Source: Chloroflexota bacterium (GTDB taxonomy: Bacteria > Chloroflexota > UBA11872). Taken from it: DNA of 64,000 bases. Where the stretch lies: assembly GCA_965243625.1 (NCBI GenBank), contig CBDEVI010000002.1:1974525-2038524 (forward strand). The letters run 5' to 3'. Below are positions 12,431 to 42,700 of this stretch, piece by piece. The position numbers and the translations under genes are program-made. The notes below the pieces were generated by a model. It was not told the origin of the DNA and searched no databases. It saw only the letters and a list, made by a program, of their open reading frames with translations. Every line of letters begins with the position of its first letter. Position 1 is the first letter of the stretch.

Positions 12431-12448
12431 GTGCCCACGGGTCGGTAG

Positions 12449-12847: not shown

Positions 12848-13094
12848 CCCGTCCTCCTGCTACCAGACAGCCCCAGCGTGAGCCGCTGGGGCGCGTTTCC
12901 CAGTACCAGTAGGACAAGCCCCGCAGCCCGCACTGGGGCTGCCGGGAAACGCGCACGCGCCTTGCGACGCCTGCGGTCCTACTGGTGCGCGGAGGGTAGC
13001 AGGTCACAAACTTGTCAACCGTTGTCGAACGGCACGGCCACGCCGTACACTCAAGGCCCGGACAGAGAGAGTCCGGCTGGCGAGAGGGACTGCC

Positions 13095-13812: not shown

Positions 13813-13837
13813 TCCCCACCGGCAGCGACGGTCCGAG

Positions 13838-14041: not shown

Positions 14042-14045
14042 TCAT

Positions 14046-14805: not shown

Positions 14806-14893
14806 GGCTACCTCCTTCAACCGACACCCTCCCAATGACTCCTAGCTTGCCTCAGGGGTGTCGGCCTTACCTCATGATCACACGGCTGTCAAG

Positions 14894-18771: not shown

Positions 18772-18796
18772 GACGGGCCGCGGTGGGGACCGGAAT

Positions 18797-19080
18797 TGTC
18801 ATTCCGAGCGCAGTGAGGAATCTAAGGGCGTTGTGCTTGTTGCCGGCCCCTTAGATTCCTCGCCGAGCCTCGGAATGACGGATAGAGGGCGCAAGTTGTC
18901 GCGGGCCACGGCCACCGCGTGGCCGCTGCCGCGGAACTGGAGATTCCTCGCTGAGCCCCCGAATGACCGCGGCGAGTCATTGGACATGTCATTTCGAACG
19001 GAGTGAGAAATCTAAGGACGTTGTGCCTGCTTTCCGCCCCTTAGATTCCTCGCCGAGCCTCGGAATGACAAAAATGGGGC
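18797..19080. repeat. tandem long inverted-repeat hairpins (family B: GTCATTCCGAGCGCAGTGAGGAATCTAAGG...CCTTAGATTCCTCGCCGAGCCTCGGAATGAC)
   Basis: Two complete hairpins with stems of about 34 bp (18797-18878 and 18975-19078) plus a half-unit near 18940. Related units are at 40425-40455 and 40618-40650. Probable REP/terminator role after the stop at 18771. Confidence 0.8.
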
Positions 19081-19172
19081 GTGGAAGAGGGTCCGCACCG
19101 CGCGCGCGTTGACGTTCGTCCAACCGCGCGCATAGCATCGGCCCGCAGCGCCAGCCCAGCGAGGGAGCCGCC

Positions 19173-20759: not shown

Positions 20760-21035
20760 CCGCTTGAGGAATTCCATGCCACAGGGACTCCGGGCGGGTC
20801 TTTTCCTTGCTCCCTTGATGAGACCTCTGAAGATTCCGGTAGGGGCGGGTCTGCGACCCGCCCGCCGCCGAGCGTCTGGCTCGCCTCCAGGTTTGACCGG
20901 ACTGGATTCCGGCCTCCGCCGGAATGACGGCAGGATTACGCCAGGGTCTCCGCTAGGGAGACCCCTACCAGCAATCGCTGGCGGACAAGGCCTTATTCCC
21001 TCTCCCGGCGGGAGAGGGTTAGGGTGAGGGGCACT
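20760..21035. repeat. composite intergenic repeat (family-A palindrome GGATTCCGGCCTCCGCCGGAATGACGG, the GGGCGGGTCTGCGACCCGCCC hairpin and the CCCTCTCCCGGCGGGAGAGGG hairpin)
   Basis: All three hairpin modules recur elsewhere in the window. Confidence 0.8.
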
Positions 21036-21037
21036 CC

Positions 21038-22141: not shown

Positions 22142-25100
22142 GTGCCGCGAGCAGGCACAATCCGGAGACCAAGGGGCACGAATCTAGGATTCTCTTCCGT
22201 GGCAGTCGACTCCACCTTGTCCGAGGGCATTCGAGAGCTCATACAGCGACTTGAGATCAAGCTCGGACAAGCTCGCGCGATTTCCGGCAAACCGCAGGAG
22301 TTGGCGGGCTTCTGGAACGCCGGCCCGGTGGAGGTCGCTTACGCGCCAAATCCGATTCCGGAGGGCAGCCTGGGCCGCGTGTGGCGCGATAGGCAAGCCG
22401 GCCGCGCAACGGCGCTGCTAGTGATCTGTCCGGGCGAGGCGGACGAACGTCTGGCCGTGGTTGGGCCTAACAGCCAACAGCCAGTAAGGCGGGCGCACGC
22501 GCACGCGCTCATCCAGGAGCTGCTGGACGCCGCTTCGCGCAGCCAACTCGAGGCCGCCCGGCGGCTCGATGCGGCGCTCGCCGTTCTGAATCTGTCCGCC
22601 GTTCCCGGCGTCGTCGCCCACGGATTGCTTACCACCCACTACCTTACGCGCCGGCTGAGCAGCCATCGGCGAGAGCTGAAAGATGCGTCCGCCGAGACCG
22701 AGGGCGTCGGCGCCTGGCGCGCTCTGGTGCAAGCACTCGGGTACAGCCTGCGCACGCGCGAACCGGATTACTACGTGCTGGAGGCGGACGGCCGAGCATT
22801 GGCGGCGCTGCGCGCACTGTCCGAACCGGGGCAGTTTGGGCGCGCGGGCCCGGGCGGCCAATTGCCGGAAGCAGCGCTGCTGGCCAATTGCCAGCGGGAA
22901 AACACGACCTGGGGTTTCCTGGCAGCTGGGGAGCGGCTGCGCCTGTACGCCTCGGCGCCGGAACGCGGATCGGCCATCGACCGCTGGCTGGAGATTGATG
23001 CCAGCCTTGTGCCCGGCGATTGGCGGTGGCTCCTGGGACTGTTCGCTCCGATTTCGCTGAAGCCCGACGGCCTCTTGGATCAGTTCCAGGTCAGGGCCGC
23101 CGATCACGGAACCGAGTTGCGCGAGCGCATCGAGCAGCAAATCCGCGAACGCGCCCTACCCGCCATCGCACGCGGGCTGGGCGAATGGATTGAAGCAAAC
23201 CAAGGCGCTGACCTCTCCGATCCGGCGACCCGCGAAGAGATTCAGGAGGCCAGCCTCACCTTCCTTTTCCGCGTGCTGTTTCTGTTGTACGCGGAGAGCC
23301 TGGACTTTCTGCCGGCCTACGCCGCCGCCTACCAGCCGCATTCGGCTACGACCATCGCGCGTGAAGCGCGCGACAACATCGATCGCCGTGGCGGATCGAC
23401 AACGACATGGGCGCGGCTGCGCACGCTGTTTCACGCCGTCAGTGGCGGCGACGCGGCCTGGGGCGTCTACGCCTACAACGGCGCACTGTTCGCGGCTGAA
23501 GACGGGCTGCCGGGCGCCGGGCTCTTGGAGCACGCCGATGTCCGCGACGACCACATGCGGCCCGCGCTGGTCGCCATCGGATTCGACGACGAGGCGGCTG
23601 ACGCCGACGCGGGCGTGGATTACGGCGGCCTGGACGTGGGTCACCTGGGCGCGATCTACGAGGGCCTGCTGGCGCTCAAGCTCTCGCGCGCTAGCGAGGC
23701 GCTGGGCTGGGACAAACGCCGCAAGCGCTACGTGCCGCAAGCTGAGCCGGGAGAGGACGGCATCGCGGCGGGTCAACTCTTCTTCCAGACGGAAGCCGGG
23801 GGACGCAAGGGCGGCGGCGTCTACTACACGCCGCAGCTGCTGGTGCGGCACCTGGTGAACCACTCCGTGATCCCGGCATTGGACGAGCATTTGCGGGGAA
23901 TCGCGAACCTACGCCAGCGTGACCCAGACGCGGCGTCGCGGCGGCTGTTCGAGTTTCGGGTGCTGGACCCGGCCATGGGCAGCGCCCACTTCCTGGCCGA
24001 CGCGCTGGACCGCATGGCCGACCACTATGCGAGCTTCCTGGCGGAGCATTCCCTTCCCGGCGTTCGCGAGCGGCTGATCGCCCTCCGGCGCGAGGCCGAA
24101 GGGGCCGAACGAGCGGAAGACGCCCAACTCCTGCGGCGGCTGATTCTCAAGCGCTGCATCTACGGTGTGGACCTCTCACCCATGGCGGTGGAGATCGGCC
24201 GCGTGAGCTTGTGGCTCAAGAGCTTCGTGCCCGGCATGGCGCTGAGCTACCTCGGTCACAACCTGCAAACCGGCGACGCGCTGGTGGGGGCAGCCACGCT
24301 CGGAGGCCGACGTGCCGCGGCCCTCCATAGGCGGCCGCAAACCGGCGACGCGTCAGTGCGAGCGGCAGCGCTGGACCCCGTGGCCAGCGTGCTGCCGCTG
24401 GTGCTCACCGAACGGGACTCGCCAATTCTCCGTGCGCTCGAAGTAGCGGCGTCCAAGGCCCGAGAGTTGGCGGACATCGAGGACCGCACCCCCGGAGACG
24501 TGGCTCGCTCGCAAGAGGTCGAGGCTGAGTTGCGCGAGGCCGCCGCCGGAGTGCGTCGGGTGCTTGATCTTTGGACGGCCGAGCCGTTCGGCGTCGAGGG
24601 TGCCCGCCAGGTCCTGGCGCGCAAGTCGGTCGCGAACGTGATCGCGGATGAGGCGTCGGGGAAAGACGCCGAGCTGCTGTCGGCCGCGCAAGCCGAAGCC
24701 GCCCGGCGTCATTTCTTCCACTGGCCGGCAGCCTTTCCCGAGGTGTTTCAGCCCGATGGCGAGCGGCCTGGATTCGACGCGGTTGTGGGCAATCCTCCGT
24801 GGAATGAAATCACTATCGAGGAATTGGCGTTCTACGCCCTCCACGATCCTGGCCTACGAGCCCTCCAGTCGAACGCCGAACGTGAAGCACGGATTATTCG
24901 CCTTGTCCAGCAGTTCCCAGAGTTGCCCAGAGCTTTCGAGCGGCTAAGGGCTCGATTAGAGCAGGAGCGGGCGTTCTTTCGCGCGGAGAACGGATACGTG
25001 GCTCAAGGATCGGGCGATACGGATGTCTACAAACTCTTCTGCGAGCGCTACCGGCATCTTGTGCGAGAAGGCGGGCGCGTTGGCGTGGTGCTGCCCCGCT

Positions 25101-26257
25101 CGGCTCTTCAGACGAAGGGCGCGCGCGGCTTCCGAGATTGGCTGTTTAGTCAAGCGCCACCAGAGCGCGTGGATTTCTTGCTCAATTCAGGGCGCTGGGC
25201 ATTCGACATGGAACCGCGCTACACCATCGCGCTGCTGGCGGCGGCGCATCGCGCACCCGCGAAGAATGCAACGCTGACCATGACGGGACCGTCAGCCAGC
25301 CGACAGGCGTTCGAGAATCGCTCTGAGGTTCGGATTCCGGTGGCGGCGCTCGGCACTGGCCACATGGTGCCGCTGCTGCCGAGCCAAGCCCAGGCCGATG
25401 TGCTGGCCAAGACGCGGCTGGGTATTCGAATTGATGAACTACGGATTCCGGGAACGAAGACCGGCGCTGCTTCGTCTCGTCTAATTCCCTATACGGAGTT
25501 GCACGAGACGAAGCAGCGCCGGTTCTTTGATCTCCCTCGAGGTGAAGGCGACACCCCCGTCTGGAAGGGGCGCTCATTTGGGCAGTACGACCCACATGGC
25601 CGCGATCCGGCAGGAGACTGTTGGTGGGGCGATACTTTCGAATTCGTCCAAACCAAACGCGCGCGTGCGCGCGTTTTCAAAAATCTGTTCTCGCCCAGCG
25701 TGCTCGCCGATCCGGCCACGCATCCGGTGCGCCGGGCACGTATTGCCTTTAGCGACGTGACCAACCGTACAAACTCCCGAACCGTGATTGCCTGTTTGAT
25801 CCCGCCGAAAGTCTTCCTTGTAAACAGCGCGCCATACTTGGTGTCGCCCACAGGAGATGCCCATGCGCAGATGGTCGCGCTTGGGGTACTGAACAGCTTG
25901 CCCTTCGACTGGCAAGCCAGGCGCTTCGTTGAGTTACACGTCAGCTTCTTTCTCCTCAACATGCTGTGTTTTCCACCCATCGAGTCGCTGGACCGAGACG
26001 CGATAGCGCGGCACGCCGGCCGCCTGTCGTGCGTGGACAAACGCTTCGCCGAGTTCGCGGCCGAGGCGGACGTGGACTGCGGCCCGCTGCTGCCCGAGCA
26101 ACGCGACGAGCTGCGCGCCGAGATCGATGCGCTGGTGGCCCACGGTTACGGCCTTTCCGCTGACGACCTGGAAGTCGTCTTCGACGACTTCACGCTGGCC
26201 GCCGTGCCGACCGCCTATCGCGACCTGGTGCGCGACGCCTATCGGCGGCTCGCGTGA
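22142..26257 (+). CDS. large gamma-class N6-adenine DNA methyltransferase of the Eco57I/BREX-PglX/DISARM-DrmMI type (1371 aa)
   Basis: Helical N-terminal region with LTFLFRVLFLLYAESLDFLP and LGAIYEGLL. GVYYTPQLLVRHLV (motif X). FRVLDPAMGSAHFL (motif I, AdoMet). IYGVDLSPMAVEIGRVSLWLK. VVGNPPW (motif IV, NPPW). C-terminal TaqI_C-like target-recognition region (LGVLNSLPFDW). GTG start. There is no internal Met for about 470 aa, so the start is uncertain. Confidence 0.8.
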   Translation: MPRAGTIRRPRGTNLGFSSVAVDSTLSEGIRELIQRLEIKLGQARAISGKPQELAGFWNAGPVEVAYAPNPIPEGSLGRVWRDRQAGRATALLVICPGEADERLAVVGPNSQQPVRRAHAHALIQELLDAASRSQLEAARRLDAALAVLNLSAVPGVVAHGLLTTHYLTRRLSSHRRELKDASAETEGVGAWRALVQALGYSLRTREPDYYVLEADGRALAALRALSEPGQFGRAGPGGQLPEAALLANCQRENTTWGFLAAGERLRLYASAPERGSAIDRWLEIDASLVPGDWRWLLGLFAPISLKPDGLLDQFQVRAADHGTELRERIEQQIRERALPAIARGLGEWIEANQGADLSDPATREEIQEASLTFLFRVLFLLYAESLDFLPAYAAAYQPHSATTIAREARDNIDRRGGSTTTWARLRTLFHAVSGGDAAWGVYAYNGALFAAEDGLPGAGLLEHADVRDDHMRPALVAIGFDDEAADADAGVDYGGLDVGHLGAIYEGLLALKLSRASEALGWDKRRKRYVPQAEPGEDGIAAGQLFFQTEAGGRKGGGVYYTPQLLVRHLVNHSVIPALDEHLRGIANLRQRDPDAASRRLFEFRVLDPAMGSAHFLADALDRMADHYASFLAEHSLPGVRERLIALRREAEGAERAEDAQLLRRLILKRCIYGVDLSPMAVEIGRVSLWLKSFVPGMALSYLGHNLQTGDALVGAATLGGRRAAALHRRPQTGDASVRAAALDPVASVLPLVLTERDSPILRALEVAASKARELADIEDRTPGDVARSQEVEAELREAAAGVRRVLDLWTAEPFGVEGARQVLARKSVANVIADEASGKDAELLSAAQAEAARRHFFHWPAAFPEVFQPDGERPGFDAVVGNPPWNEITIEELAFYALHDPGLRALQSNAEREARIIRLVQQFPELPRAFERLRARLEQERAFFRAENGYVAQGSGDTDVYKLFCERYRHLVREGGRVGVVLPRSALQTKGARGFRDWLFSQAPPERVDFLLNSGRWAFDMEPRYTIALLAAAHRAPAKNATLTMTGPSASRQAFENRSEVRIPVAALGTGHMVPLLPSQAQADVLAKTRLGIRIDELRIPGTKTGAASSRLIPYTELHETKQRRFFDLPRGEGDTPVWKGRSFGQYDPHGRDPAGDCWWGDTFEFVQTKRARARVFKNLFSPSVLADPATHPVRRARIAFSDVTNRTNSRTVIACLIPPKVFLVNSAPYLVSPTGDAHAQMVALGVLNSLPFDWQARRFVELHVSFFLLNMLCFPPIESLDRDAIARHAGRLSCVDKRFAEFAAEADVDCGPLLPEQRDELRAEIDALVAHGYGLSADDLEVVFDDFTLAAVPTAYRDLVRDAYRRLA

Positions 26258-29200
26258 CGATGGACTCGCCGTCGGGCGGCCAGCCGGAGTTGATCGACAA
26301 CCGGGAGCGCTACTCGCACGGCGAGGCGCTGGAATGGCTGGCGGCCCACTACCCCCTGCCGCTGCGCGCGGCCAGCGGCTACGTGCGCCTGGGCGGGTTG
26401 CACGCGCTGGCCCAGATGCCGGGGCCGGCGGACCGGCCGGTGCGGCTGCTGCTCGGGGCGATGCCCGATCCAGGTCTGGGTGAGGACTCGCCAATCGACG
26501 AAGCGCGGCAGGTGAATCAACTCTTCGAGCGCGCCCTCGAACGTCTGCGACGCGAGCGCGACTTCGACGCCTTCCCACCCAGCCGCCGGCTACAGGCTCT
26601 GGCCGCGGTAGACGACTTTCTGCGGGCGCCGCGGGTGGAGGTGCGCCGCTACGCGCCACGATTCCTGCACGGCAAGACCTACATCCTCAGCAGCGACCCC
26701 CACCACGAGGCCGCGCCGGGGGCGGCGCTGGTGACGTCGGCCAACCTGACAAGGGGAGGGCTTTCCGGAAACTTGGAATTGGGGCTGGCGCGCTATGACC
26801 CGTGGTTGGTACGAGAGGCCGCCAACTGGTTCGACGGGCTTTGGGCGGAGGCCGAGCCGTTCAAGGATGAGCTCCTGGATCTGCTGTTGCCGCCTCCGCA
26901 GGCGCAAGACCCGGAGACTATCTTTCTGCGCGCGCTGCTGGAGCTTTACGGCGACGAGTTCGCGGAGGTTGACCCGCCGCCGGTGACCACGCTGGCCGAG
27001 TTTCAGCGCGACGGCTACGAGCGCGCCCGCTACATCGTCGATGCCTACGGCGGCGTGATCTATGCCGACGGAGTTGGCACGGGCAAGACGTTCATTGGGG
27101 TGGAGTTCGTGCGCGACTACGCGCGCGAGCGCGGCCTCTACACGCTGGTGGTGGCACCGGCGCAGCTGCGCGACACGACCTGGGTACAGGCGCTGCGGGC
27201 GGCCAACCTGCCACATGAGGTGGTGTCCTACCAGGAATTGGCCGCCGACGAGCAACTAGCGGATCCCTCCCACAGGCAACGCCAACGGGTGCTGAGCCTC
27301 AACAAGGACGCCTATCGGCTGATACTCGTGGACGAGGCGCATGCCTTCCGCAACCGCGACACGACTTGGTATGGCGCGCTTCATCGACTGCTCGGCGGCG
27401 AGCCCAAGCACCTGGTGCTACTCACGGCCACGCCGGTCAACAACTCGCTGTGGGACCTGTATCACCAGATCATGCTGTTTGCACGGGCGGAGTCCCGCTT
27501 CGCCGGAGCGCCGCTCCGCGTTCGCGACTTGAAGCAGTTTTTCGTCACGGCGGGCGCCAACGAGCCGGAAAGCGCCTCACACGCGAAGCTGTTCCCGCTG
27601 CTCGATGCAGTGGCGGTACGGCGCGACCGGCGTTTCTTGCAGGAGCGCTACCAAAACGCGGCCTTTCCGGATGGCACCCCGGTGCGCTTTCCCCAGCCAC
27701 GCTTGACCGCTCACCGCTACGACCTGGACGCGGCCTATCCCGGCGTATTCACCGAGATCGTGGCGGCGATCGACAAACTCGAGATGGCGCGCTATCGGCC
27801 CTCGGCCTACTTGCGCGACCAGGCCGAAGAAAGCGCGCACGAGAACGTGTTGGCCGCGCTGATCCAATCTGGACTGTTGAAGCGCTTCGAGTCGTCGGTG
27901 TACGCCGCGCACAAGACCGTCGAGCGGATGGTGGCAGCCCACGAACTGGTACTGCGTGCGCTCACCGAGCACGACCTGGTGCCTGGGCCCGAGCAATTAC
28001 TCGAGCTGCTTGCCGAAGACTCCGATGGCTGGGACACGGCAGAGCTCGAGGACGCCCTGCTGGAGGCTTGCGGAGACGCCTGGGCGGCCACGGACTTCGA
28101 GGACAGCTTCGGCGAGCACCTTGACGCCGACTTGAGCACGCTGCGCCTGCTGCGGGTGCGCCTTTCTGATCTGCTGCAAGTCGAGGATCCCAAGCTGACC
28201 GCGCTGGCCCGCGTGCTGCAAGAAACGCCGGCACGCAAGGTGGTGGTCTTTGCGAGCTACGCGGACACCGTGGCGTACCTGGATGAACAGTTGCGCTCGC
28301 GGCCCGAGATTGGCAACGGGCGGGCAATGGCCGTGATCCACGGCAGCGCCGAGGACGCCGCAACTCGCACGCACATTCTCGAACGCTTCTGCCCCCGTTC
28401 CATGACGGACGACCCGGATTTCAGACCGCGGGATGGCGAGGTCGATCTGCTTCTAAGCACGGACGTGGTGTCCGAAGGTCAGAACCTGCAAGACGCCCAG
28501 GCGGTCGTCTCCTACGACATGCCCTGGAACCCGCAGCGTGTGGTGCAACGTAATGGCCGAGTGATTCGCCTCAAGTCGGACTTCGATGAGGTGTTCCTCG
28601 CCACGCTGCTGCCCGCCGACGGTGCGCTGGAAGAGGAATTGGAGTTGGAGTCCAAACTGCGCGCCAAGATCGCGGCGGCCAACGCCTCTATTGGAATGGA
28701 GTCCGAGGTGCTGGCCGACGCCGGGGCAGAGTCCCGAAACTACGCCGAACTCAAGGCATTCAGCGACCGGCTGGTGGAAGGCGACGCCGACCTGTTGGCC
28801 GAAGGCGAGGGCGGTGAGATCGGCTCGTTCGCGGGCGAGGCATACCGCCACCGGCTCCGGCGCGCTCGCGATGAGGGGCGGTTGGAGGAACTGAGGGGAC
28901 TTCCTTGGGGGATCGGCGCGGCGTTCCGGGCTGCCACCCAGCCTGCCGACGTGAATCTGCCGGGCGTGTTCTTTGCCTGCCGGACACGCGCGGACCGTCG
29001 CTACTGGCGATTCGTGGACGCCGACGGCCGCGTACTGACGACAGACTTGCGGATGCTGCAGCTGGCGGACCCGCACGGCGCCATCGGCGAGCCCGAGCCC
29101 ACGACCATTGACCTGGATGCTGTCTGGCAGGTGGCCGTGAACGACATCTGCACCGAGCACAACGCGCAGCTCGATCCGCAGACCCGCGAGGCGCGCTTGC

Positions 29201-29517
29201 CCGCCAGCCAGCGCTGGGCGCTCCAGGACATCCTGCGCTCGGCCGAGGCGCCGGGCGGGCGAGAATTCGAGCAAGCGCACGACGCGCTGACGGTTGCGCG
29301 CCCGGGAATCGTGCTGCGCGACCTGTCCGCAATCCGCCACCGCCAGCAGGACGGGGAGCTAAGCGTCTCCGAGGCTGCAGAGGAGATTGCTAGTGCGGTT
29401 CAGCGGCACGGGCTAAGGCCGATGCAAGTGCCAGACGAACCGGAATCGGAAATCACTCCGGACGACGTGGGCGTGGTCTGTTATCAGATCGTCCTGCCAC
29501 CGGGCTCTGACGCGTGA
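26254..29517 (+). CDS. PLD-family (HKD) nuclease fused to an SNF2/DEAH superfamily-2 helicase (1087 aa)
   Basis: Start overlaps or abuts the methyltransferase stop (GTGACGATG). PLD motif FLHGKTYILSSD...LVTSANLT. Helicase motif I DGVGTGKTF, motif II LILVDEAHAFRN, SNF2 motif III LLTATPVNNSLWDLY. C-terminal motifs V/VI: STDVVSEGQNLQDAQAVVSYDMPWNPQRVVQRNGRVIRL. Confidence 0.85.
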   Translation: MTMDSPSGGQPELIDNRERYSHGEALEWLAAHYPLPLRAASGYVRLGGLHALAQMPGPADRPVRLLLGAMPDPGLGEDSPIDEARQVNQLFERALERLRRERDFDAFPPSRRLQALAAVDDFLRAPRVEVRRYAPRFLHGKTYILSSDPHHEAAPGAALVTSANLTRGGLSGNLELGLARYDPWLVREAANWFDGLWAEAEPFKDELLDLLLPPPQAQDPETIFLRALLELYGDEFAEVDPPPVTTLAEFQRDGYERARYIVDAYGGVIYADGVGTGKTFIGVEFVRDYARERGLYTLVVAPAQLRDTTWVQALRAANLPHEVVSYQELAADEQLADPSHRQRQRVLSLNKDAYRLILVDEAHAFRNRDTTWYGALHRLLGGEPKHLVLLTATPVNNSLWDLYHQIMLFARAESRFAGAPLRVRDLKQFFVTAGANEPESASHAKLFPLLDAVAVRRDRRFLQERYQNAAFPDGTPVRFPQPRLTAHRYDLDAAYPGVFTEIVAAIDKLEMARYRPSAYLRDQAEESAHENVLAALIQSGLLKRFESSVYAAHKTVERMVAAHELVLRALTEHDLVPGPEQLLELLAEDSDGWDTAELEDALLEACGDAWAATDFEDSFGEHLDADLSTLRLLRVRLSDLLQVEDPKLTALARVLQETPARKVVVFASYADTVAYLDEQLRSRPEIGNGRAMAVIHGSAEDAATRTHILERFCPRSMTDDPDFRPRDGEVDLLLSTDVVSEGQNLQDAQAVVSYDMPWNPQRVVQRNGRVIRLKSDFDEVFLATLLPADGALEEELELESKLRAKIAAANASIGMESEVLADAGAESRNYAELKAFSDRLVEGDADLLAEGEGGEIGSFAGEAYRHRLRRARDEGRLEELRGLPWGIGAAFRAATQPADVNLPGVFFACRTRADRRYWRFVDADGRVLTTDLRMLQLADPHGAIGEPEPTTIDLDAVWQVAVNDICTEHNAQLDPQTREARLPASQRWALQDILRSAEAPGGREFEQAHDALTVARPGIVLRDLSAIRHRQQDGELSVSEAAEEIASAVQRHGLRPMQVPDEPESEITPDDVGVVCYQIVLPPGSDA

Positions 29518-30216: not shown

Positions 30217-30239
30217 GGCTAAGCGGCTCCTTCCAAGTG

Positions 30240-30340
30240 GAGACCTTTGCAAAATTTTTTGACATCCCGCGCCCCACCTCGGATCACCCTCACCCTAACC
30301 CTCTCCCATCAAGGGAGAGGGGACCGGACGGGCTATCCAG
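30240..30340. repeat. intergenic repeat module CACCCTCACCCTAACCCTCTCCC-ATCAA-GGGAGAGGGGACC
   Basis: CCCTCTCCC/GGGAGAGGG hairpin family. Copies also at 20990, 31560, 32480, 40330 and 40700. Confidence 0.75.
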
Positions 30341-30355: not shown

Positions 30356-31447
30356 TCACGCATGGGCCTCCAGGTGCGCCAGCACGATATCGCGTACCAG
30401 CGCGACGTGCTCGACGGCCTCGCGGCCCGGCGTGAGCGGCTGATCGCCGCGCCTGATGCACGCCGCGAAGTGCTCCAGCTCCAGCTTGAACGGGTTGGCC
30501 TGCCATGAGCGGGTGGTTGTGGCGGGGTGGCCCTCGGCGTCGATCCACTGCACGGTGACGTCGCTCGGCACGCCGCGGCTCCAGCCCGTGGGGAACGAGG
30601 CGATCACGCGATCGCGCGAGCCATAGACCGCCAGCGTCTCCTCGAAGCTGAAAAGCTCCGGCAGGTCGATCCAGCTGCACACGGCCCGCGCGCCGCCGGG
30701 GTACTCCAGCACGGTGGACAGCGCGACGCCGCCGGCCCAGATGTCGGTGCTGACGACGCGGCGCGGACTGCCGAACATGCCGTGAAGGTTGCCGATGTCG
30801 TGGATCATGCTGCCGTTGATGGCCCCGAAGGCGCTGAGCGTGGCGGCGTCGACCCGGTCGCGGCCCAGCGCCTCGGCGACGAGCCGGTCCGACTCTGCGC
30901 GCCCGGCCTCGATCACCTCCCGGGGCAGATCGGACGGCACGTGGTAGTCGAACGTCGCCAGGTGCAGCGCGTTGTCGGGGTGCAGGTGGTTGACCTGGAT
31001 GAAGCGCACGTCGTCGATTGCCGCCACCCGCCGCTGCGCGAACTGGAAGGCCGGGTCATAGCGCTTCATGTAGGCCGCTTGGTAGACGAAGCCGGCGCGG
31101 TCGGCCGCATCCGCCATGGCCTCCGCCTCGGCAACCGTGTAGCAAACGGGCTTTTCGACCAGGATGTGCTTGCCGGCCTCGGCCGCCGCGATAGCGGGCG
31201 GCGCATGCGAGCCGGTGGTGCAGACGATGACCGCGTCGATGTCCGCCCGCTCGACGAGCTCGTGAAAGTCCACGTGCCGTCGCTCCGGCGGCACGCCGTA
31301 GGCGTCGCCGACGTGCGTCAGCAACTCACGCGACAGGTCGCACAGGCCGGCGATCTCGAACTCGTCCTGGAGCTCGACCAGGTGCGGCAAGTGCTGGATC
31401 TGGGCAATCCCGCCACAGCCGATGACGCCGATCCGAATTCTGCTCAC
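30356..31447 (-). CDS. Gfo/Idh/MocA family oxidoreductase
   Basis: IRIGVIGCGGIAQ Rossmann motif plus AVIVCTTGSHAPPAIAAAEAGKHILVEKP. Confidence 0.85.
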   Translation of the reverse strand: MSRIRIGVIGCGGIAQIQHLPHLVELQDEFEIAGLCDLSRELLTHVGDAYGVPPERRHVDFHELVERADIDAVIVCTTGSHAPPAIAAAEAGKHILVEKPVCYTVAEAEAMADAADRAGFVYQAAYMKRYDPAFQFAQRRVAAIDDVRFIQVNHLHPDNALHLATFDYHVPSDLPREVIEAGRAESDRLVAEALGRDRVDAATLSAFGAINGSMIHDIGNLHGMFGSPRRVVSTDIWAGGVALSTVLEYPGGARAVCSWIDLPELFSFEETLAVYGSRDRVIASFPTGWSRGVPSDVTVQWIDAEGHPATTTRSWQANPFKLELEHFAACIRRGDQPLTPGREAVEHVALVRDIVLAHLEAHA

Positions 31448-31489
31448 GGTCCGAAGTGCCTTCGATTTGCGATGCGCACGCCGAGCCTA

Positions 31490-31795
31490 CCGCCTGGTCC
31501 CGCCAGCGGAGACCTCTTCCCAAATGATCGACATGCCATCCGCATCCAATCCTCGAATCACCCTCTCGCTGCCCCTCTCCCGGCGAAGACCATTGCAGAA
31601 TCCAACAGGGCTTGGGAATGACCCGGCCCATCCTGTCCGCCCTCAGATTCAATGAAGGGTGGATTCCCGCCTTCGCGGGAATGACGAAGGGTTACGCAGG
31701 GGTCTCCCTTCGCGGGGAAAGGCTGCGCGGGAATGACGGACTCAAGGTTGCCCACTACCCGCTGGACGGCCCTGCCTTACTTATTTTAAGCTCTG
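31490..31795. repeat. full-length composite REP/MITE-like element (about 250 bp), copy 1 of 3 near-identical units
   Basis: Ordered modules: CCCTCTCC hairpin, CATTGCAGAATCC, GGGCTTGGGAATGACCCGG, CCATCCTGTCCGCCC, TTCAATGAAGGGTGGATTCCCGCCTTCGCGGGAATGACGAAGGGTTACGCAGG. Same order at 32440-32650 and 33940-34140. Confidence 0.8.
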
Positions 31796-31811
31796 CGTAA
31801 GGAGGTCCCTC

Positions 31812-32057
31812 ATGCTCGTGAAGATCACGTCCAAGCGCCAGGTCACCTTCCCCAAGCATGTGCTGGACGAATTGGGGGTGGGGCCCGGCGACCGGCTCGA
31901 GCTGCGCGAGGGTCCCGATGGCTACATCCTGAAGCCCAGGCGCATCGACTATTCCAAGCTGGGAACGCTGAGGGACAAGATAAAGCCCGGCACTCCGCCG
32001 TTCGACATCCGTAAGTTCCGGGACGAAGGATATGATCCGGACAAGTATCGGGATTGA
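31812..32057 (+). CDS. AbrB/MazE/SpoVT-type antitoxin (VapB-like)
   Basis: AAGGAGG RBS. MLVKITSKRQVTFPKHVLDELGV swapped-hairpin beta-barrel signature. Overlaps the downstream PIN gene. Confidence 0.7.
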   Translation: MLVKITSKRQVTFPKHVLDELGVGPGDRLELREGPDGYILKPRRIDYSKLGTLRDKIKPGTPPFDIRKFRDEGYDPDKYRD

Positions 32058-32436
32058 CACCTCGATTCTCGTCCGGTTGGTCACCGGCCAGCCTCCCGAC
32101 CTGTTTACCCTCTGCGTCGAAAGACTCAGCGCCCTCTGCGCGGCGGACGCCGAGATTCTCGCGTCAAATCAGGTGATTGGAGAGGCCTACGTCACCCTTC
32201 AACGTCACTATGGAATCTCGAAGGAGGACGCCCGTGACGAGCTTCACACCACCCTCACCAGCGGTCTGGTCGCCCCACTGAGCGGGCGCGTCGTACTGGA
32301 CGCCCTCGCGGCGACCAGTAACCCCGGCCTGTTCGACCGCCTGATCGCCATCGACTACGAGCGGGCCGGGATGGACACGCTCACCTTGGACAGGCGCATG
32401 GCTTCCCTCCGCCACGTGCGCCTCGTCGCAGAGTGA
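32032..32436 (+). CDS. PIN-domain ribonuclease toxin (VapC-like)
   Basis: N-terminal IGIDTSILV (first PIN acidic residue) and the partner position overlapping an AbrB-type antitoxin by 26 nt. Size 134 aa. Confidence 0.65.
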   Translation: MIRTSIGIDTSILVRLVTGQPPDLFTLCVERLSALCAADAEILASNQVIGEAYVTLQRHYGISKEDARDELHTTLTSGLVAPLSGRVVLDALAATSNPGLFDRLIAIDYERAGMDTLTLDRRMASLRHVRLVAE

Positions 32437-32439
32437 GCG

Positions 32440-32650
32440 ACTGACCGAGCCGCGACATTTCATCCAGGCCCAATGCTCGGATCGCCCTCTCCCTAACCCT
32501 CTCCCAGAGGAGACTTTTGCGAAATCCGGCCGGGCTTGGGGATGACCGGTCGCATCCTGTCCGCCCCCAGGTTCAATGAAGGGTGGATTCTCGCCTTCGC
32601 GGGAATGACGAAGGGTTACGCAAGGGTCTCCAGAGGGAGACGGGATCGGG
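32440..32650. repeat. full-length composite REP/MITE-like element, copy 2
   Basis: Same module order as 31490-31795. Together the two copies bracket the vapBC pair. Confidence 0.8.
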
Positions 32651-32735
32651 CCAAGGACAGTCCTGGCGCAGGCGTCCGGTATTCTCGCCGGGCTCGCCGG
32701 ATGGCGACATCGGTTGGTGCGAGAGGACGGACGGG

Positions 32736-33866
32736 GTGTCCCAGGGACTGGCGGCGAACGAGGGCGACATCCTGCTGCTGGTGGGGACGCGGAAGGGTGC
32801 GTTTTTCCTCTCCTCTGACAGGTCGCGCAAGGAATGGTCCGTCTCCGGCCCGCATCACGCGGGTTCGGACGTGTTCCACCTGTCCTACGACGCGAGGGAC
32901 GGGGGCACGGTCTTCGTCGCCATCAACAGCCCGATTTGGGGGGCGGAGATCCAGCGCAGCCGGGACCTGGGCGCCACGTGGGAGGCGGCGACGCGAAACC
33001 CGAGCTTTGGGGAGGGACGCAAGGACTCGGTCGAGAAGGTCTGGCACGTGGCGCCGGGCCGGTCGAGTGAGCCGGGCGTGGTCTATGCCGGAGTTTCCCC
33101 GGCGGCCCTCTTCAAGAGCGAGGACGGCGGCGACACGTGGGCTGAAGTCGAGTCGCTGACCGACCATCCGACCCACGAACGGTGGGAGCCGGGATTCGGC
33201 GGACTATGCCTGCACAGCATGGTGCTGGACCCGGCCAACGACGACCGACAGTGGGTGGCCATTTCGGCCGTCGGCGTGTTCGGCACCACCGACGGCGGCG
33301 CGACGTGGTCGACGATGAACGCCGGCGTGCGCGCGGACTTCGCGCCGGATCCGTTCCCCGAGTTCGGGCAGTGTCCGCACAAGCTGCTGGGACATCCGGC
33401 CATGCCCGAGCGGCTGTATCAGCAGAACCACTGCGGCGTCTTTCGCAGCGACGACGGCGGGCGGCAATGGATCGACGTGAGCGACGGACTGCCCTCGCGT
33501 TTCGGCTTCGTGCTGGGCATCCACGCCGCCGATCCCGACACCATCTTTGTCGTGCCCGAGGACAAGGCACTGGACGGCGAGGTCGGCGGTTTCGTGCGCT
33601 ATGTGACCGACGCAAAGTTCCGGGTCTACCGCAGCCGCAATGCCGGGGCCGACTGGGAGCCGCTGACCAACGGCCTGCCCCAGCAAGACGCCTATGTGCA
33701 CCTCATGCGCGAGGGCATGGCGACCGACCCGTTGGACAACTGCGGCATCTACCTCGGCACGACGACCGGACAGATATTCGCGAGCCGCGACGAGGGGGAC
33801 AGCTGGGAGCTCCTGGTCGACTACCTGCCGCCGATCAACTCGGTGGACTGCGCGGTGGTGGTTTAG
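32736..33866 (+). CDS. BNR/Asp-box repeat protein (Ycf48-like / sialidase-like beta-propeller)
   Basis: Asp-boxes SEDGGDTW, TTDGGATW, SDDGGRQW, SRNAGADW, SRDEGDSW. The ORF is open from 32583, but its 5' part lies in the repeat element. An in-frame GTG at 32736 is preferred as start. Confidence 0.65.
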   Translation: MSQGLAANEGDILLLVGTRKGAFFLSSDRSRKEWSVSGPHHAGSDVFHLSYDARDGGTVFVAINSPIWGAEIQRSRDLGATWEAATRNPSFGEGRKDSVEKVWHVAPGRSSEPGVVYAGVSPAALFKSEDGGDTWAEVESLTDHPTHERWEPGFGGLCLHSMVLDPANDDRQWVAISAVGVFGTTDGGATWSTMNAGVRADFAPDPFPEFGQCPHKLLGHPAMPERLYQQNHCGVFRSDDGGRQWIDVSDGLPSRFGFVLGIHAADPDTIFVVPEDKALDGEVGGFVRYVTDAKFRVYRSRNAGADWEPLTNGLPQQDAYVHLMREGMATDPLDNCGIYLGTTTGQIFASRDEGDSWELLVDYLPPINSVDCAVVV

Positions 33867-33939
33867 CGAACGTCTCCACCACTCCACGCACTGGTGGAGA
33901 CCTCCGAAATCGCGCGGTGGTCAGACAAGCTCCATCAGG

Positions 33940-34140
33940 AACGCCAGCCGTTGACTCCCGTCCCGACCTTCCCGCTTCCAGGTGACCTTTGCAGAGTCCA
34001 GCCGAGCTTGGGGAAGACCGGGCGCGTCCTGCCCGCGCCCAGGTTCAATGAAGGGTGGATTCCCGCCTTCGCGGGAATGACGAAGGGTCTTCCTTCAGGG
34101 GAAAGGGGGCTGATCAGAGGCTTTCTCGCGCGGGAAGCCT
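33940..34140. repeat. full-length composite REP/MITE-like element, copy 3
   Basis: Same module order as copies 1 and 2. Confidence 0.8.
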
Positions 34141-34144
34141 CGGC

Positions 34145-35320
34145 CTAGCCGCCGCTCAGGACCTTGTAGCCGTAGTTGTCCTTGGTGCGTTCGGCGACTG
34201 GGAGCACCTCGACTACGACGCGGGATAGGCCCACGACCTCGCCATTGGCGTCGAAGCTGTAGTCGTCGCCGAGGGCGCCGCTCCAGGTGATGCCGTAGAG
34301 GCAGTCGCGGAATCCGTCGGCGTCCTGGTCGTCCCCGGTTTGGCTGAGGCACTCGGCGGCGATGTAGACGGTGTCGTAGGCGGAGCCGAGGTGCCAGGGC
34401 AGGGTGATGTAGTCATAGCGCTGCCGGAAGTCGGCGAGCACCGACTGCGTCTTGGCGTTGTTGGGGTCGGGCGCGGCGGTGATGGCCTTGACCCCGGTGG
34501 CGGCGTCACCCGCGATTTCGAGCGACGTGGTGCCCACGGTAATGGTGTCCCCGTAGATGGGGCCGGCGTAACCGAGCTCCCGCGCTTGCTTGATGATGGT
34601 GCCCGCCGCGAACTCGGCCTGCGGCGCGATGTGGAGCGCGTCCGGATTGGCCTCGAATAGCTTCGTCAACTGCGACCGGAAGTCCGTGATGTCGGACCCA
34701 AACCGCTCCGCGGCGACGATGGCGCCGCCGTTCTCCTCGAACCGCGCGACGGTCGTCCGCCGGACGCCCTCGGCGTAGTCGGTTTCCTCGGTGATGGTGG
34801 CCAGCGTGCGGATGCCGTCGGCCCAGAGCGCGTCGCCGGTGCGGATGCCCACCTCGATGTCGCTGATCTGGGTGCGGAAGATGTAGTCGCCGGCGTCGGC
34901 GATGTCGGGGTTGCTGGCCAGCCCGGAGAAGAGGATCACGCCGTCGGCCTCGGCCAGCGGGGCGACGCCGAGCATGGCGCCGCTGCACGACGTCCCGAGA
35001 ATGATCTTGACGCCGTCGACGTCGGTGAGCTTCTTGTAGGCGTTGATCGCGTCCTGGGCGTTGCACTTCGAGTCCTCGACGACCAGCTCCACCCGGCGCC
35101 CGTCGACGCCGCCCGCGGCGTTGATCTCGTCCACGGCCATGACCTTGGCCTGATGGGCCACGGTGCCGTAGGTCTCGCCGGCGCCGGTGAGGGATTCCAT
35201 GACGCCGATGCGATAGGGGATGACCTCGTCGGCATCCTCGCCGCAGGCCGCAAGTGCTGTCGCCAAGGCGATCTGCAGCAGCCCCAGCGTGACGGCTCGC
35301 TTCCAAAACGTGAGTCGCAT
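34145..35320 (-). CDS. ABC transporter substrate-binding lipoprotein, branched-chain amino acid (LivJ/LivK, type 1 PBP) family
   Basis: Lipobox LATALAACGED, then YRIGVMESLTGAGETYG...DSKCNAQDAINAYKKL...ILGTSCSGAMLGVAP typical of Leu/Ile/Val-binding proteins. ATG at 35320; the ORF is open further upstream. Confidence 0.8.
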   Translation of the reverse strand: MRLTFWKRAVTLGLLQIALATALAACGEDADEVIPYRIGVMESLTGAGETYGTVAHQAKVMAVDEINAAGGVDGRRVELVVEDSKCNAQDAINAYKKLTDVDGVKIILGTSCSGAMLGVAPLAEADGVILFSGLASNPDIADAGDYIFRTQISDIEVGIRTGDALWADGIRTLATITEETDYAEGVRRTTVARFEENGGAIVAAERFGSDITDFRSQLTKLFEANPDALHIAPQAEFAAGTIIKQARELGYAGPIYGDTITVGTTSLEIAGDAATGVKAITAAPDPNNAKTQSVLADFRQRYDYITLPWHLGSAYDTVYIAAECLSQTGDDQDADGFRDCLYGITWSGALGDDYSFDANGEVVGLSRVVVEVLPVAERTKDNYGYKVLSGG

Positions 35321-40275: not shown

Positions 40276-40289
40276 GGGGTCGCTTTCGA

Positions 40290-40780
40290 GGGGGCCAGGA
40301 TCCCGGGCTGCGCGCAGCCCGGGCCACCGGAGACCCTCACCCCAGCCCTCTCCCTTCCAGGGAGAGGGAGTCGGGCGGCGTCGGCGTTTGGTCCGATGCG
40401 CTGGGGTCGTGCGCTCGAGATTCCTCGCTGCGCTCGGAATGACAGATGGTGGGCGGGTCTGAGACCGCCCCTACCCCGCGTATTTGGCATGCCTCCGGGA
40501 TCAGCCGGACTGGATTCCGGCCTACGCCGGAATGACAGAGGGGTTGCGCAAGGTTCCCTTCGAGGGAGGGAGTCGGGCGGCGTCGGCGTTTCATCCGATG
40601 CGCTGGGGTTGAGCGCTCTAGATTCCTCGCTGCGCTCGGAATCACATTTCGGGGCTGGGACGGCTGGCTCGGTGTCCAGTGCCCTCGCGAAGACCCCCTC
40701 CCCAACCCTCCCCCTTCCAGGTGGAGGGGGCAGGAGTTCGGCACGGGCGGGTCTGAGACCCGCCCCTACCCCGAGAACTT
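40290..40780. repeat. about 490-bp intergenic array of repeat modules between convergent genes (two CCCTCTCCC...GGGAGAGGG hairpins, two family-B units, one family-A palindrome, two GGGCGGGTCTGAGACCCGCCCCTACCCC hairpins)
   Basis: 40330-40375 and 40700-40735 (family CCCTCTCCC). 40425-40455 and 40618-40650 (GAGATTCCTCGCTGCGCTCGGAATGAC). 40508-40540 (GGATTCCGGCCTACGCCGGAATGAC). 40452-40478 and 40738-40764 (GGGCGGGTCTGAGACC). Confidence 0.8.
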
Positions 40781-40784
40781 CGCG

Positions 40785-42479: not shown

Positions 42480-42700
42480 ACTGCGAGGTAGCGAGCGGCA
42501 TTGACTATCGGACCACCGGATGGCTTCGCCTCGGCGTCGGGCCCCCTTGATTCGTCCAGTGACACGCTGGGGTGGATTCCCGCCTTCGCGGGAATCACAA
42601 AGGACTACGCAGAGGACTCCCTTCGCGGGAATGACGGACTCGAATTGACCCGATACTCATTTAGAAGCAAGCGTCGTGATATATTGTTTGGCCAATACCG
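42480..42700. repeat. composite REP/MITE-like repeat (GGGTGGATTCCCGCCTTCGCGGGAATCACAAAGGACTACGCAGAGG plus CTTCGCGGGAATGACGGACTCGAATTGACC)
   Basis: Family-A modules as elsewhere. Confidence 0.75.

Follow-up and report, generated by a model that had tools for sequence, protein, structure and literature searches.

The repeats around the vapBC pair in the window, by which we mean the whole 64,000-nt stretch of Chloroflexota DNA analysed here, are selfish intergenic DNA of a largely known kind, namely a MITE plus a REP. The mobile unit is a 123-bp element with the terminal inverted repeats GGAGACCTTTGC…GCAAAGGTCTCC, which we call B1. B1 is a true MITE, as its ends are inverted repeats, its insertions duplicate the target and have empty counterparts in relatives, and an autonomous partner exists. 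Since its core is a REP of the CGTC class, both halves of the label "REP/MITE-like" given in the initial annotation were right. In our view, these repeats are probably nested selfish DNA, in which an IS5-mobilised, hairpin-homing MITE carries a CGTC-1 REP/NTS hairpin. The window contains four copies of B1 (c1-c4):

31585-31707, + strand: c1, 123 bp, with the ends GAAGACCATTGC…GCAGGGGTCTCC; flanked by the CCCCTCTCCC arm on the left and by the degenerate arm CTTCGCGGGGAAAGG on the right
32509-32631, + strand: c2, 123 bp, with the ends GGAGACTTTTGC…GCAAGGGTCTCC; located in the loop of CCCTCTCCC-AGA-GGGAGA(C/G)GGG
33981-34093, + strand: c3, 113 bp, with 10 bp (TTACGCAAGG) deleted from the 3' inverted repeat; CCTTCCCGCTTCCA on the left side and TTCAGGGGAAAGG on the right side of the element
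12298-12413, + strand: first 116 bp of c4, whose 3' inverted repeat is split by a 4.1-kb IS1595-family transposon; TACGCAAG at c4 is the 8-bp duplication from the insertion of this transposon
16526-16540, + strand: last 15 nt of c4 (TACGCAAGGGTCTAC), beyond the IS1595-family transposon

Only the 123-bp unit is common to all copies. The identities were 83% over 179 nt for c1 (31529-31707) and c2 (32453-32631), 87% over 105 nt for c1 and c3, 88% over 109 nt for c2 and c3, and 83-85% over 116-118 nt for the fourth copy (aligned at 12298-12415) and the others. The three units described previously were found where they had been placed and with the module order that they were said to share; the predicted identity of more than 80% among them holds over these 105-179 nt and not over 250 bp. 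The listed partial copies are all real; the 4.1-kb transposon has separated the final 15 nt of c4 from the rest, and these are the fragment noted at about 16525. Indeed, B1 represents a dispersed family and not a local duplication: BLAST of c2 against 917 kb of fetched loci revealed 17 further full copies on other contigs, from at least three related MAGs, and these alignments begin and stop at identical positions on either contig strand. The inverted-repeat ends were 12-19 nt long in 21 B1 copies and in the other elements of 112-159 bp. No match to a B1-specific pattern was detected in the JGI metagenome collection. B1 has no coding capacity, and the ORFs across it had no Pfam match. The recurrent pseudo-peptides RFNEGWIPAFAGMTKGYA and LDSGLRRNDG had been correctly translated, and the warning that they are not genes was justified.

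The proposal of a single composite element of about 250 bp was not borne out. The apparent composite results from B1 sitting within another loop, either that of an older hairpin, CCCTCTCCC-loop-GGGAGAGGG, or that of a palindrome resembling B1's own. The module order (CCCTCTCC hairpin arm, TTTGCAGAATCC…, …GGAGAGG) is seen because the 123-bp B1 interrupts the loop of this older hairpin. The hosts and the unoccupied targets in the window are as follows:

32454-32508, + strand: left part of "module A" (GACATTTCATCC…CCCTAACCCTCTCCCAGA), the host of c2; its right part is at about 32632-32669
31508-31584 (host of c1) and 30239-30330: homologous copies of module A
20998-21018, no strand assigned: uninterrupted hairpin CCCTCTCCC-GGC-GGGAGAGGG, an unoccupied target whose ortholog in L003 holds a full-length IS5-family element
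30299-30321 and 40346-40368: other unoccupied hairpins

Inspection of the termini showed inverted-repeat ends together with target-site duplications that correspond to the 3-5-nt loop (CTTC, GAAG, AGA, TTCCA and TTGAT). The duplications vary in length and can be read as 3-5 nt or as 5-7 nt, an ambiguity of 2-4 nt; the GG…CC termini of the element resemble the foot of the stem into which it inserts. At c2, for example, the duplication is the loop AGA, or up to CCAGAGG when the outer G/C pairs are counted. In 13 of 24 elements the flanks form a perfect stem of at least 5 bp beside a copy of the 3-7-nt loop, versus 1.2% of the control positions. Examples of such hairpin-loop insertions are attcccgcCTTC/…/CTTCgcgggaat and, with an insertion sequence, ccctctcccTTGAT/IS/TTGATgggagag. 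The earlier suggestion that the element targets this intergenic spacing was not supported, and is better put as hairpin loops being targeted wherever they are located.

Empty sites were identified in syntenic Chloroflexota genomes that are 88-93% identical to the window (loci are designated by L and a number). At the site orthologous to c1, L003 has the hairpin module without B1, and L002, L005 and L006 lack both. At the c2 site the hairpin is uninterrupted in L005, and nothing is present in L002, L006, L001 and L003. The c3 site is empty in L002, where the genes abut, and is occupied by a different MITE subfamily in L005. At the c4 site, L002 and L006 have neither B1 nor the IS1595-family transposon. 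The insertion sequence of L003 has its empty counterpart in the window at 20998-21037.

Several copies (c1 in the window, as well as copies in L012, L007 and L058) have chimeric flanks, suggesting recombination between copies or later insertions alongside simple transposition. The combination of left and right arms from different hairpin types in some copies, and synteny breakpoints that fall at hairpin halves, would also be expected if local duplication, gene conversion or homologous recombination of intergenic regions, instead of transposition, had spread the repeats. We consider such a spread very improbable in view of the precise, identical boundaries in 21 copies on many contigs, the loop duplications and the clean empty sites. 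It is at most a secondary process.

Most of the 24 elements bounded by GGAGACCTTTGC/GCAAAGGTCTCC are 112-159 bp long, and two are 1182 and 1187 bp long. These long elements (L003, 1633-2819, and L090, 5873-7054) each encode a DUF772 + DDE_Tnp_1 protein of 323/329 aa, and the two transposases are 63% identical. Such 1.18-kb IS5-family insertion sequences, which are present in relatives, have the same 16-19-nt ends and the same hairpin-loop target as B1. Their interior is not shared with B1, and common ends of this kind do not by themselves establish an origin of B1 by internal deletion. In the 64-kb window, we found no transposase of this type; the sole transposase there belongs to the IS1595 family. 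The IS5 transposase is the presumed enzyme moving B1.

According to the mechanism we propose, B1 would be moved in trans by the DDE transposase of the 1.18-kb IS5-family insertion sequence. Both the insertion sequence and its MITEs would enter the loops of pre-existing intergenic hairpins, so that the 3-5-nt loop becomes the target-site duplication, and the 28-nt CGTC-1 hairpin of B1 (dRS3/NTS, SRM) would provide a new hittable loop per insertion. Repeated hits of this kind would account for the nested mosaics observed in this DNA: B1 in the CCCTCTCCC hairpin, B1 in the NTS loop, and B1 in B1.

The vapBC pair was confirmed and is physically bracketed by c1 and c2, although both genes are neighbours of the elements and not parts of them:

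31812-32057, + strand: vapB (MazE/AbrB-type)
32032-32436, + strand: vapC (PIN)

The pair had also been suggested to be cargo. Indeed, it fits exactly between c1 and c2, which point in the same direction, and vapBC lies beside different left-hand neighbours in L001 and L004, as might be expected of a composite transposon made by the two copies. However, the same pair, with an identical VapB, is found between the same neighbours in L002, L005 and L006 without the upstream B1 and without flanking copies, and B1 is absent downstream of vapBC in L002 and L006 too. Each copy is in its own hairpin with its own flanks, and the outer ends of c1 and c2 (CGGC versus AGAG) share no duplication. Furthermore, the rearrangement in L001/L004 breaks at the NTS hairpin half upstream of vapB and not at the B1 ends. 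The idea of cargo is thus hardly credible, and we rejected it: the outer flanks do not match, as those of a composite transposon carrying vapBC should, and L002, L005 and L006 have vapBC at this site but not the copies.

The window also contains remnants and a second MITE subfamily, whose ends are those of B1:

20826-20951, + strand: B2, the second subfamily, with the ends TGAGACCTCTGAAG…CGCCAGGGTCTCC
12183-12290 (3' part), 40451-40568, and about 8150-8290 of L005: B2-related copies
42572-42654, + strand: 5'-truncated B1 remnant consisting of the hairpin and the 3' inverted repeat AAAGGACTACGCAGAGGACTCC

Within B2 are a REP with a GTAG tag and a hairpin of type II (see below), and its host site is a CTCCC-loop-GGGAG hairpin. 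Behind the inverted repeat of the remnant come the right half of an outer NTS hairpin (CTTCGCGGGAATGACGG) and its flank; this right half plus flank recurs at 31723-31756 and is uninterrupted at 9783-9828. Units between split palindrome halves were found, for example, in L027 (818-940), in L001 (15409-15543) and in the window (42572-42654).

The palindrome described in the initial annotation as perfect, ATTCCCGC-CTTC-GCGGGAAT, is exact at five window sites (9787, 12376, 31663, 34059 and 42576). Together with its surroundings, CGTC-ATTCCCGC-GAAG-GCGGGAAT-CCA(C), it fits the CGTC-1 REPs described by Di Nocera et al. (2013, PMC3733652), which have an unpaired CGTC tag, a 4-nt loop closed by an 8-bp stem starting with AT, and a CCA tail. 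The hairpins of this and related types are:

31659-31686, - strand: CGTC-1 REP/NTS-type hairpin in c1, CGTCATTCCCGCGAAGGCGGGAATCCAC, with an 8-bp stem and a 4-nt loop
9783-9810 (solo), 12372-12399 and 34055-34082: copies identical to the c1 hairpin
32583-32610 (1 change) and 42572-42599 (TGTG tag): variants of the c1 hairpin
20902-20929, - strand: type II hairpin with a compensated stem (ATTCCGGC…GCCGGAAT); also at 12241-12268 and 40510-40537
18798-19069, no strand assigned: cluster of type III hairpins (GTCATTCCGAG…GAGGAATC) at 18798-18822, 18854-18879 and 19044-19069
40419-40443 and 40621-40645: further type III hairpins

The pattern GGATTCCNGC-N4-GCNGGAATSAC occurred 9 times in the window (0.02 expected), and the looser GATTCY-N8-14-GGAATSAC 14 times in 64 kb (0.01 expected). 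Using the definitions of the Neisseria Transformation Sequence (NTS) and the Ssn-related motif (SRM) in PMC11893778, with a cut-off of at most 1 mismatch for NTS, we obtained four window matches to the NTS consensus CGTCATTCCCGCGMAVGCGGGAATCYRG with 1 mismatch each (27/28), and 7 matches to the published SRM pattern versus 0.82 expected in randomised sequence. The 28-nt hairpin was 98% identical among the four window copies of B1, compared to 79% for the remainder of B1 (Fisher p = 2e-11). Its unpaired flanks are invariant and its stems change in a compensated fashion, with the stem pairs CGC..GCG in 180 and GGC..GCC in 30 cases across loci. The hairpin was present in more than 108 stretches among the matches listed from the genome collection, and 166 of 184 hairpins were extragenic, i.e. 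outside predicted genes.

Conservation of this kind could also come from RNA structure and not from mobility, if the repeats worked at the RNA level, for example as 3' stabilisers, terminators or small RNAs. Most window copies are downstream of + strand genes, and REPs and MITEs are known to affect mRNA stability in other bacteria (PMC3733652). However, the orientation of the hairpin was independent of the direction of the adjacent gene (97 same and 109 opposite at 3' ends, 62 and 69 at 5' ends; about 100 loci with G+C of at least 55%, all phyla). No Rfam match was obtained even at E = 1, no terminator-like T tracts were found, and the DNA fold of whole B1 was not more stable than that of shuffled sequences (z = -1.27). 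The insertion polymorphism among close relatives also counts against a required role at any single site, and we regard an RNA function as the source of the conservation as quite improbable.

The orientation of the hairpin showed a strong bias with respect to local GC skew (Spearman rho 0.67, p = 3.5e-14), which is mentioned neither in PMC3733652 nor in PMC11893778. A bias of this kind would be expected from replication-coupled single-strand transposition, as in REP/RAYT (REPIN-like) systems, where a domesticated IS200/IS605-type tyrosine transposase moves hairpins and doublets on ssDNA and the longer units are BIME-like clusters. In addition, the hairpins are short, abundant, extragenic and REP-like, with a tag on one side, and genuine GTAG-tagged REPs (GTAGGGGCGGGTCTGCGACCCGCCC) are present in the same intergenic mosaics. 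Nevertheless, a RAYT origin is unlikely. The tag is CGTC and not GTAG, and in the survey that defined CGTC REPs no RAYT gene was flanked by them (PMC3733652). Of the window genes that were scanned, none encoded a Y1 transposase. Units moved by RAYTs lack long inverted-repeat ends, duplications and an autonomous partner of the DDE type, all of which B1 has.

The elements can be compared with several known systems. REPINs, RAYT doublets and BIMEs are likewise palindromic, tagged, clustered and extragenic; here we found a CGTC tag, inverted-repeat ends and duplications, and the scanned genes of the window included no tyrosine transposase. Bacterial MITEs such as Correia/NEMIS, RUP, ERIC and Nezha resemble B1 in size (about 100-160 bp), inverted-repeat ends, short duplication, non-coding nature, intergenic location and IS-shared ends. 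B1 differs from them in sequence, in its target, which is a hairpin loop and not a short motif such as TA, and in its internal REP-class hairpin, which is far better conserved than the remainder of the element. IS1397 inserts in the REP loop with a 3-4-bp duplication. Among the insertion sequences directed at REPs are IS1397/ISKpn1 (IS3), IS621/ISPpu9/ISPa11 (IS110) and ISRm22 (IS4), and REP-specific insertion is known in five IS families, IS5 included (PMC1525189). These share with our elements an insertion specific to repeated extragenic palindromes, whereas here it is a non-autonomous derivative that inserts most, and one of the hairpins it targets is also part of its own sequence.

Neisserial intergenic mosaic elements (NIMEs) consist of Neisseria RS units flanked by dRS3, with which the IS5-family IS1106 is associated (Bentley et al. 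2007, PMC1797815; Tobes and Pareja 2006, PMC1525189). The similarities are an IS5-family element tied to an ATTCCC…GGGAAT palindrome, mosaics whose 50-150-bp units have this palindrome, whole or in halves, at their borders, and arrays that differ between close relatives and coincide with differences in gene content. In contrast to Neisseria, the unit sequences here are unrelated to the RS families, the arrays are short, and a second, unrelated hairpin, CCCTCTCCC…GGGAGAGGG, is equally used as a target; furthermore, the origin of the mosaics by loop insertion and loop duplication is directly visible from the empty sites. The hairpin itself corresponds to CGTC-1 REP/dRS3/NTS/SRM in the 27/28 NTS match, in ATTCCC-N8-GGGAAT, in its many extragenic copies and in its location beside ssn in other genomes, including Chloroflexota. 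It differs from the published CGTC-1 REPs and NTS (PMC3733652, PMC11893778) in that a MITE with ends of the DDE type carries most of the copies. Neither publication reports CGTC REPs or NTS from the phylum Chloroflexota.

In Neisseria, NTS/dRS3 is the ssDNA target of the GIY-YIG nuclease SsnA (Nat Commun 2025, PMC11893778). We found ssn genes adjoining the same hairpin in L108, L019, L050 and L114 and in the Chloroflexota chromosome OZ243944.1 (L115). No ssn gene (cd10448-type GIY-YIG) was detected in the window, in L001-L006 or in the sampled stretches of JAPPNP and OY759972.1; the DNA sampled from the closest genomes, about 250 kb, contained none. The near-identity to NTS in a distant phylum, the conservation far above that of the MITE and the compositional-strand bias all point to a protein that reads ssDNA, and this opens the biology of the Ssn nuclease family to tests outside Neisseria. 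Such a protein, reading the hairpin in single-stranded form, may keep it intact, and the likeliest candidate would be an Ssn-type GIY-YIG nuclease whose gene lies in another part of the genome. The bias in orientation may then come from keeping the cleavable strand off the lagging-strand template: with the Ssn-cut strand on the C-rich, presumably lagging, strand, the exposed lagging-strand template would carry the uncuttable form only. It is conceivable, if rather doubtful, that CGTC/NTS hairpins are held on one replication strand and have spread in Chloroflexota inside a DDE-mobilised MITE homing into the hairpins' own loops.

For MAG annotation, these elements are the source of recurrent false ORFs (WIPAFAGMT, DSRLRGND and similar peptides), and they mark intergenic sites that differ between close relatives. 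CGTC REPs have been described as being without any dedicated transposase (Di Nocera et al. 2013, PMC3733652). Here, a CGTC REP is seen inside an IS5-type MITE that inserts in hairpin loops, those of the same REP included, and this ride provides a concrete and testable route for the multiplication of CGTC REPs and the growth of NIME-like mosaics. If the combined strand and homing model were true, the hairpins would be a self-amplifying target system, which would explain how a REP class multiplies "without a dedicated transposase".

Reading of positions 31300-34400, repeat detection and self-BLAST confirmed the three related units that the initial annotation had described around the vapBC toxin-antitoxin pair in this 67% G+C window. 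The proposed identity of more than 80% among these units held over 105-179 nt and not over 250 bp: copies 1 and 2 were 83% identical over 179 nt, and the match of copy 3 to either of them (87-88% identity) was restricted to 105-109 nt. A fourth full copy was found at 12298-12415, with 83-85% identity over 116-118 nt. The partial copies listed previously were all real, and the recurrent pseudo-peptides were correctly translated, their ORFs having no Pfam match. The supposed composite element of about 250 bp turned out to consist of a shorter element, here called B1, plus both arms of an older host hairpin. Empty and filled sites, together with the common start and end positions of all copies, define B1 as a unit of 123 bp with the terminal inverted repeats GGAGACCTTTGC…GCAAAGGTCTCC. 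The features concerned are as follows.

12298-12413 and 16526-16540, B1 copy 4, in two parts
12414-16525, IS1595-family transposon, 4.1 kb
14985-15947, minus strand, transposase of the IS1595-family transposon (PF12762 and zinc ribbon)
31585-31707, B1 copy 1
31812-32436, vapBC pair
32509-32631, B1 copy 2
33981-34093, B1 copy 3

A BLAST search with copy 2 against all fetched DNA revealed 17 further B1 copies on other contigs of related Chloroflexota metagenome-assembled genomes (RHO3_bin_74, GCA_028873795.1; jk18x1bzbins.9; jk18xAbins.3), all with identical start and end positions. The family is therefore dispersed over several contigs, as had been proposed. A B1-specific pattern had no match in the JGI metagenome collection.

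Identical VapB is encoded on 17 public contigs, and the six loci that we fetched (L001-L006) are syntenic with the window, with genes 88-93% identical and different intergenic regions. The site of copy 2 consists of just a few bases in L001, L002, L003 and L006 and solely of a CCCTCTCCC-AGA-GGGAGAGGG hairpin module in L005; the window has this same module with about 123 bp in its loop. At the site of copy 3, the genes abut in L002 and a different element is present in L005. The site of copy 1 holds the hairpin module alone in L003, and both module and B1 are missing in L002, L005 and L006. The element at the site of copy 4 is missing in L002 and L006.

The annotation of vapB as a MazE-type antitoxin and of vapC as a PIN protein was confirmed. 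The suggestion that the pair is cargo of a composite element formed with copies 1 and 2 was rejected: three relatives have vapBC in this position but lack the elements, and the outer ends of the two copies share no duplication. In L001 and L004, vapBC has a different left neighbour, with the breakpoint at a hairpin half upstream of vapB, which recalls the rearrangements associated with repeats in Neisseria (PMC1797815). The BNR/Sortilin-type gene between copies 2 and 3 (32736-33866) is present in L002, L005 and L006 and missing in L001, L003 and L004; since this distribution does not depend on the repeats, a repeat-mediated polymorphism was ruled out. Two very large genes at 22142-29517, for an Eco57I/MmeI-type methyltransferase (1371 aa) and a PLD + SNF2 helicase (1087 aa), form a restriction/defence-type island; in L002 and L005 its place is taken by a phosphotransferase (APH) gene, and in L001 and L004 genes similar to those of the island immediately adjoin vapBC on its left. 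Apart from this island and the one IS1595-family transposase, the remaining window genes are ordinary metabolic genes.

A search for inverted pairs of the 12-nt end returned 24 distinct bounded elements. Most were 112-159 bp long, with several different interiors, and two were of 1182 and 1187 bp. The long elements, located in L090 (chromosome OY759972.1) and in the syntenic relative L003, each code for a protein of 323/329 aa whose DUF772 and DDE_Tnp_1 domains correspond to the IS5-family architecture. These proteins share 63% identity, and the ends of the two elements agree with those of B1 over 16-19 nt. Because the ends are shared, B1, a MITE, is probably moved in trans by this IS5-family transposase.

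Hairpin loops are the insertion target of the B1/IS5-type family: the two arms of a palindrome flank both insertion sequences and most of the short elements, with the loop sequence repeated at either end, for example attcccgcCTTC|…|CTTCgcgggaat, cccgcGAAG|…|GAAGgcggg and ccctctcccTTGAT|IS|TTGATgggagag. The flanks of 13 of the 24 elements form a perfect stem of 5 bp or more, compared to 1.2% of control positions. At 20998-21037, the window position orthologous to that of the L003 insertion sequence, the host hairpin is intact, and in two further loci (L007 and L027) a B1 copy lies inside the hairpin loop of another B1. The target duplication comprises at least 3-5 nt; as the GG…CC termini of the element extend the stem of the target, its exact length is ambiguous. 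REP-targeting insertion sequences are known from five families including IS5, with ISNm1106 and the Neisseria palindrome as an example (PMC1525189). In L003 (1633-4000), the IS5-family element and an IS110-family element (transposase 2855-3802) occupy neighbouring positions within a single CCCTCTCCC…GGGTTAGGGTGAGGG module, which the window has in uninterrupted form; L004 contains another IS110 copy.

The palindrome ATTCCCGC-CTTC-GCGGGAAT, noticed earlier as the core of the repeat, occurs exactly at five window sites. The pattern of hairpin plus flanks was found nine times in the window (0.02 expected), and a looser hairpin pattern 14 times (0.01 expected), 13 of them on the plus strand. Read on the minus strand, the B1 core is CGTCATTCCCGCGAAGGCGGGAATCCAC. 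The Neisseria Transformation Sequence (NTS), CGTCATTCCCGCGMAVGCGGGAATCYRG, includes dRS3 (ATTCCC-N8-GGGAAT); SsnA, a small GIY-YIG nuclease, binds and cuts just one of its strands, in single-stranded form (PMC11893778). Four window copies match the NTS with at most one mismatch, the limit applied in that study, and the broader Ssn-related motif (SRM) has 7 matches in the window versus 0.82 expected. The B1 hairpin also fits the CGTC-1 REP class, with a CGTC tag, an 8-bp stem starting with A-T pairs, a 4-nt loop and a CCA tail. CGTC REPs were described by Di Nocera et al. from five phyla, Chloroflexi not among them, and as having no dedicated transposase (PMC3733652).

In the genome collection, a 29-nt pattern of the hairpin and its GGGT flank occurred in more than 108 stretches among the matches listed, which came from Chloroflexota, Dehalococcoidia, many Proteobacteria, Terriglobia, Bdellovibrionales and others. 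In the fetched DNA, 249 of 263 ATTCY-N8-15-GGAAT palindromes carried a one-sided GTS tag, about 108 of the 263 having come via the search pattern, so that just the remainder are independent. All 249 tagged palindromes were followed by C, the base reported as critical for binding (PMC11893778). Compensated stem changes were present among the palindromes (CGC..GCG in 180, GGC..GCC in 30). In the four window B1 copies, which were not selected by pattern, the 28-nt hairpin was 98% identical versus 79% for the rest of B1.

A known RNA family was ruled out, as Rfam gave no match at gathering thresholds in the whole window and none at E up to 1 in 31400-34200. A promoter and terminator scan yielded nothing exceeding chance, which excluded a terminator. 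The fold of the DNA around copy 2 was no better than that of shuffled sequences; therefore, we claim structure only for the hairpins and the end pairing. A RAYT-type REP was rejected for the B1 core hairpin, though REPs with the classical GTAG signature (GTAGGGGCGGGTCTGCGACCCGCCC) occur alongside at 20838-20866, 40452-40476 and 40744-40770, interspersed with CGTC hairpins and borne inside B2, a second MITE subfamily with B1-like ends.

Thirteen of the 14 window hairpins face one way. In about 100 stretches (the window and fetched loci of all phyla whose G+C was 55% or higher), orientation showed no bias relative to the direction of the adjacent gene (97 versus 109 at 3' ends, 62 versus 69 at 5' ends), and a transcript-level explanation was therefore rejected. 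Orientation correlated strongly with local GC skew (Spearman rho 0.67, p = 3.5e-14), which was itself unrelated to the coding strand. With repeats masked, the GGATTCC…GGAATGAC form was on the G-rich strand in 99 versus 34 hairpins and 43 versus 13 loci of Chloroflexota, and orientation reversed with the sign of the skew inside single chromosomes (OZ251484.1 and OY759972.1). For B1 only, the trend was weak (15 versus 6, p = 0.08), this lineage having little skew. Provided that the G-rich strand is the leading one, the strand cut by SsnA would be kept off the lagging-strand template. A bias of hairpin strand with GC skew is not mentioned in PMC3733652 or PMC11893778.

Using a loose GIY-YIG pattern and an HMM built from the resulting matches, we detected no GIY-YIG gene in the window, L001-L006 or the fetched stretches of the closest genomes. 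Outside the close lineage, ssn-type genes adjoin the same hairpin in four pattern-fetched stretches, and the arrangement in L108 is hairpin-ssn-hairpin. A protein search returned 1627 relatives; two of them are encoded in tandem on a 4.23-Mb Chloroflexota chromosome (OZ243944.1), where one of the two genes ends inside a type I hairpin. Among the best 120 of the 1627 matches were OZ243944.1 and OY762634.1; OY759972.1 and a 3.3-Mb relative were not among these 120. Since no such gene was present in the sampled stretches of the closest genomes, yet ssn lies beside the same hairpin elsewhere, a cognate Ssn nuclease in the lineage of the window is a plausible candidate only. In L115 (OZ243944.1, 9540-10330), a Type ISP-like restriction-modification gene is followed by two tandem ssn-type GIY-YIG genes, the first flanked by GTCATTGCGGCGCAGGCCGCAATCC hairpins and the second terminating within a type I NTS hairpin; this points to two adjacent nuclease-motif pairs.

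Several ORFs without annotation are found on the IS1595-family transposon (33-nt inverted ends GGAGTTTATATAC…, 8-bp duplication TACGCAAG), which interrupts B1 copy 4 in its 3' end and is missing in L002 and L006. At 18772-19172 and 40276-40784, hairpins of a third type (GTCATTCCGAGCGCAGYGAGGAATC), spaced at about 190-200 bp, form dense mosaics that also contain CCCTCTCCC hairpins and GTAG REPs. The window further contains tandem or nearby paralogous gene pairs with 73-82% DNA identity (849-2475; 11301-12149 versus 17025-17867; 56646-59286), of AhpC/TSA, PhyH-type dioxygenase and carbamoyltransferase types. A stretch of 1.6 kb (8310-9949) has no ORF passing the codon-position filter; at its end, immediately upstream of a gene at 9950, is a solo NTS hairpin (9783-9828).

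To conclude, the repeat family is real and dispersed, and its anatomy is resolved: B1, an IS5-type MITE that homes into hairpin loops, contains a CGTC-1/NTS palindrome and is itself nested in other hairpin repeats. Each ingredient of this system is of a known kind. What is new is their combination (a REP class described as having no transposase is carried by a MITE that targets REP loops), the occurrence of such a CGTC-1/NTS-carrying MITE in Chloroflexota, and the strand bias of the hairpins.
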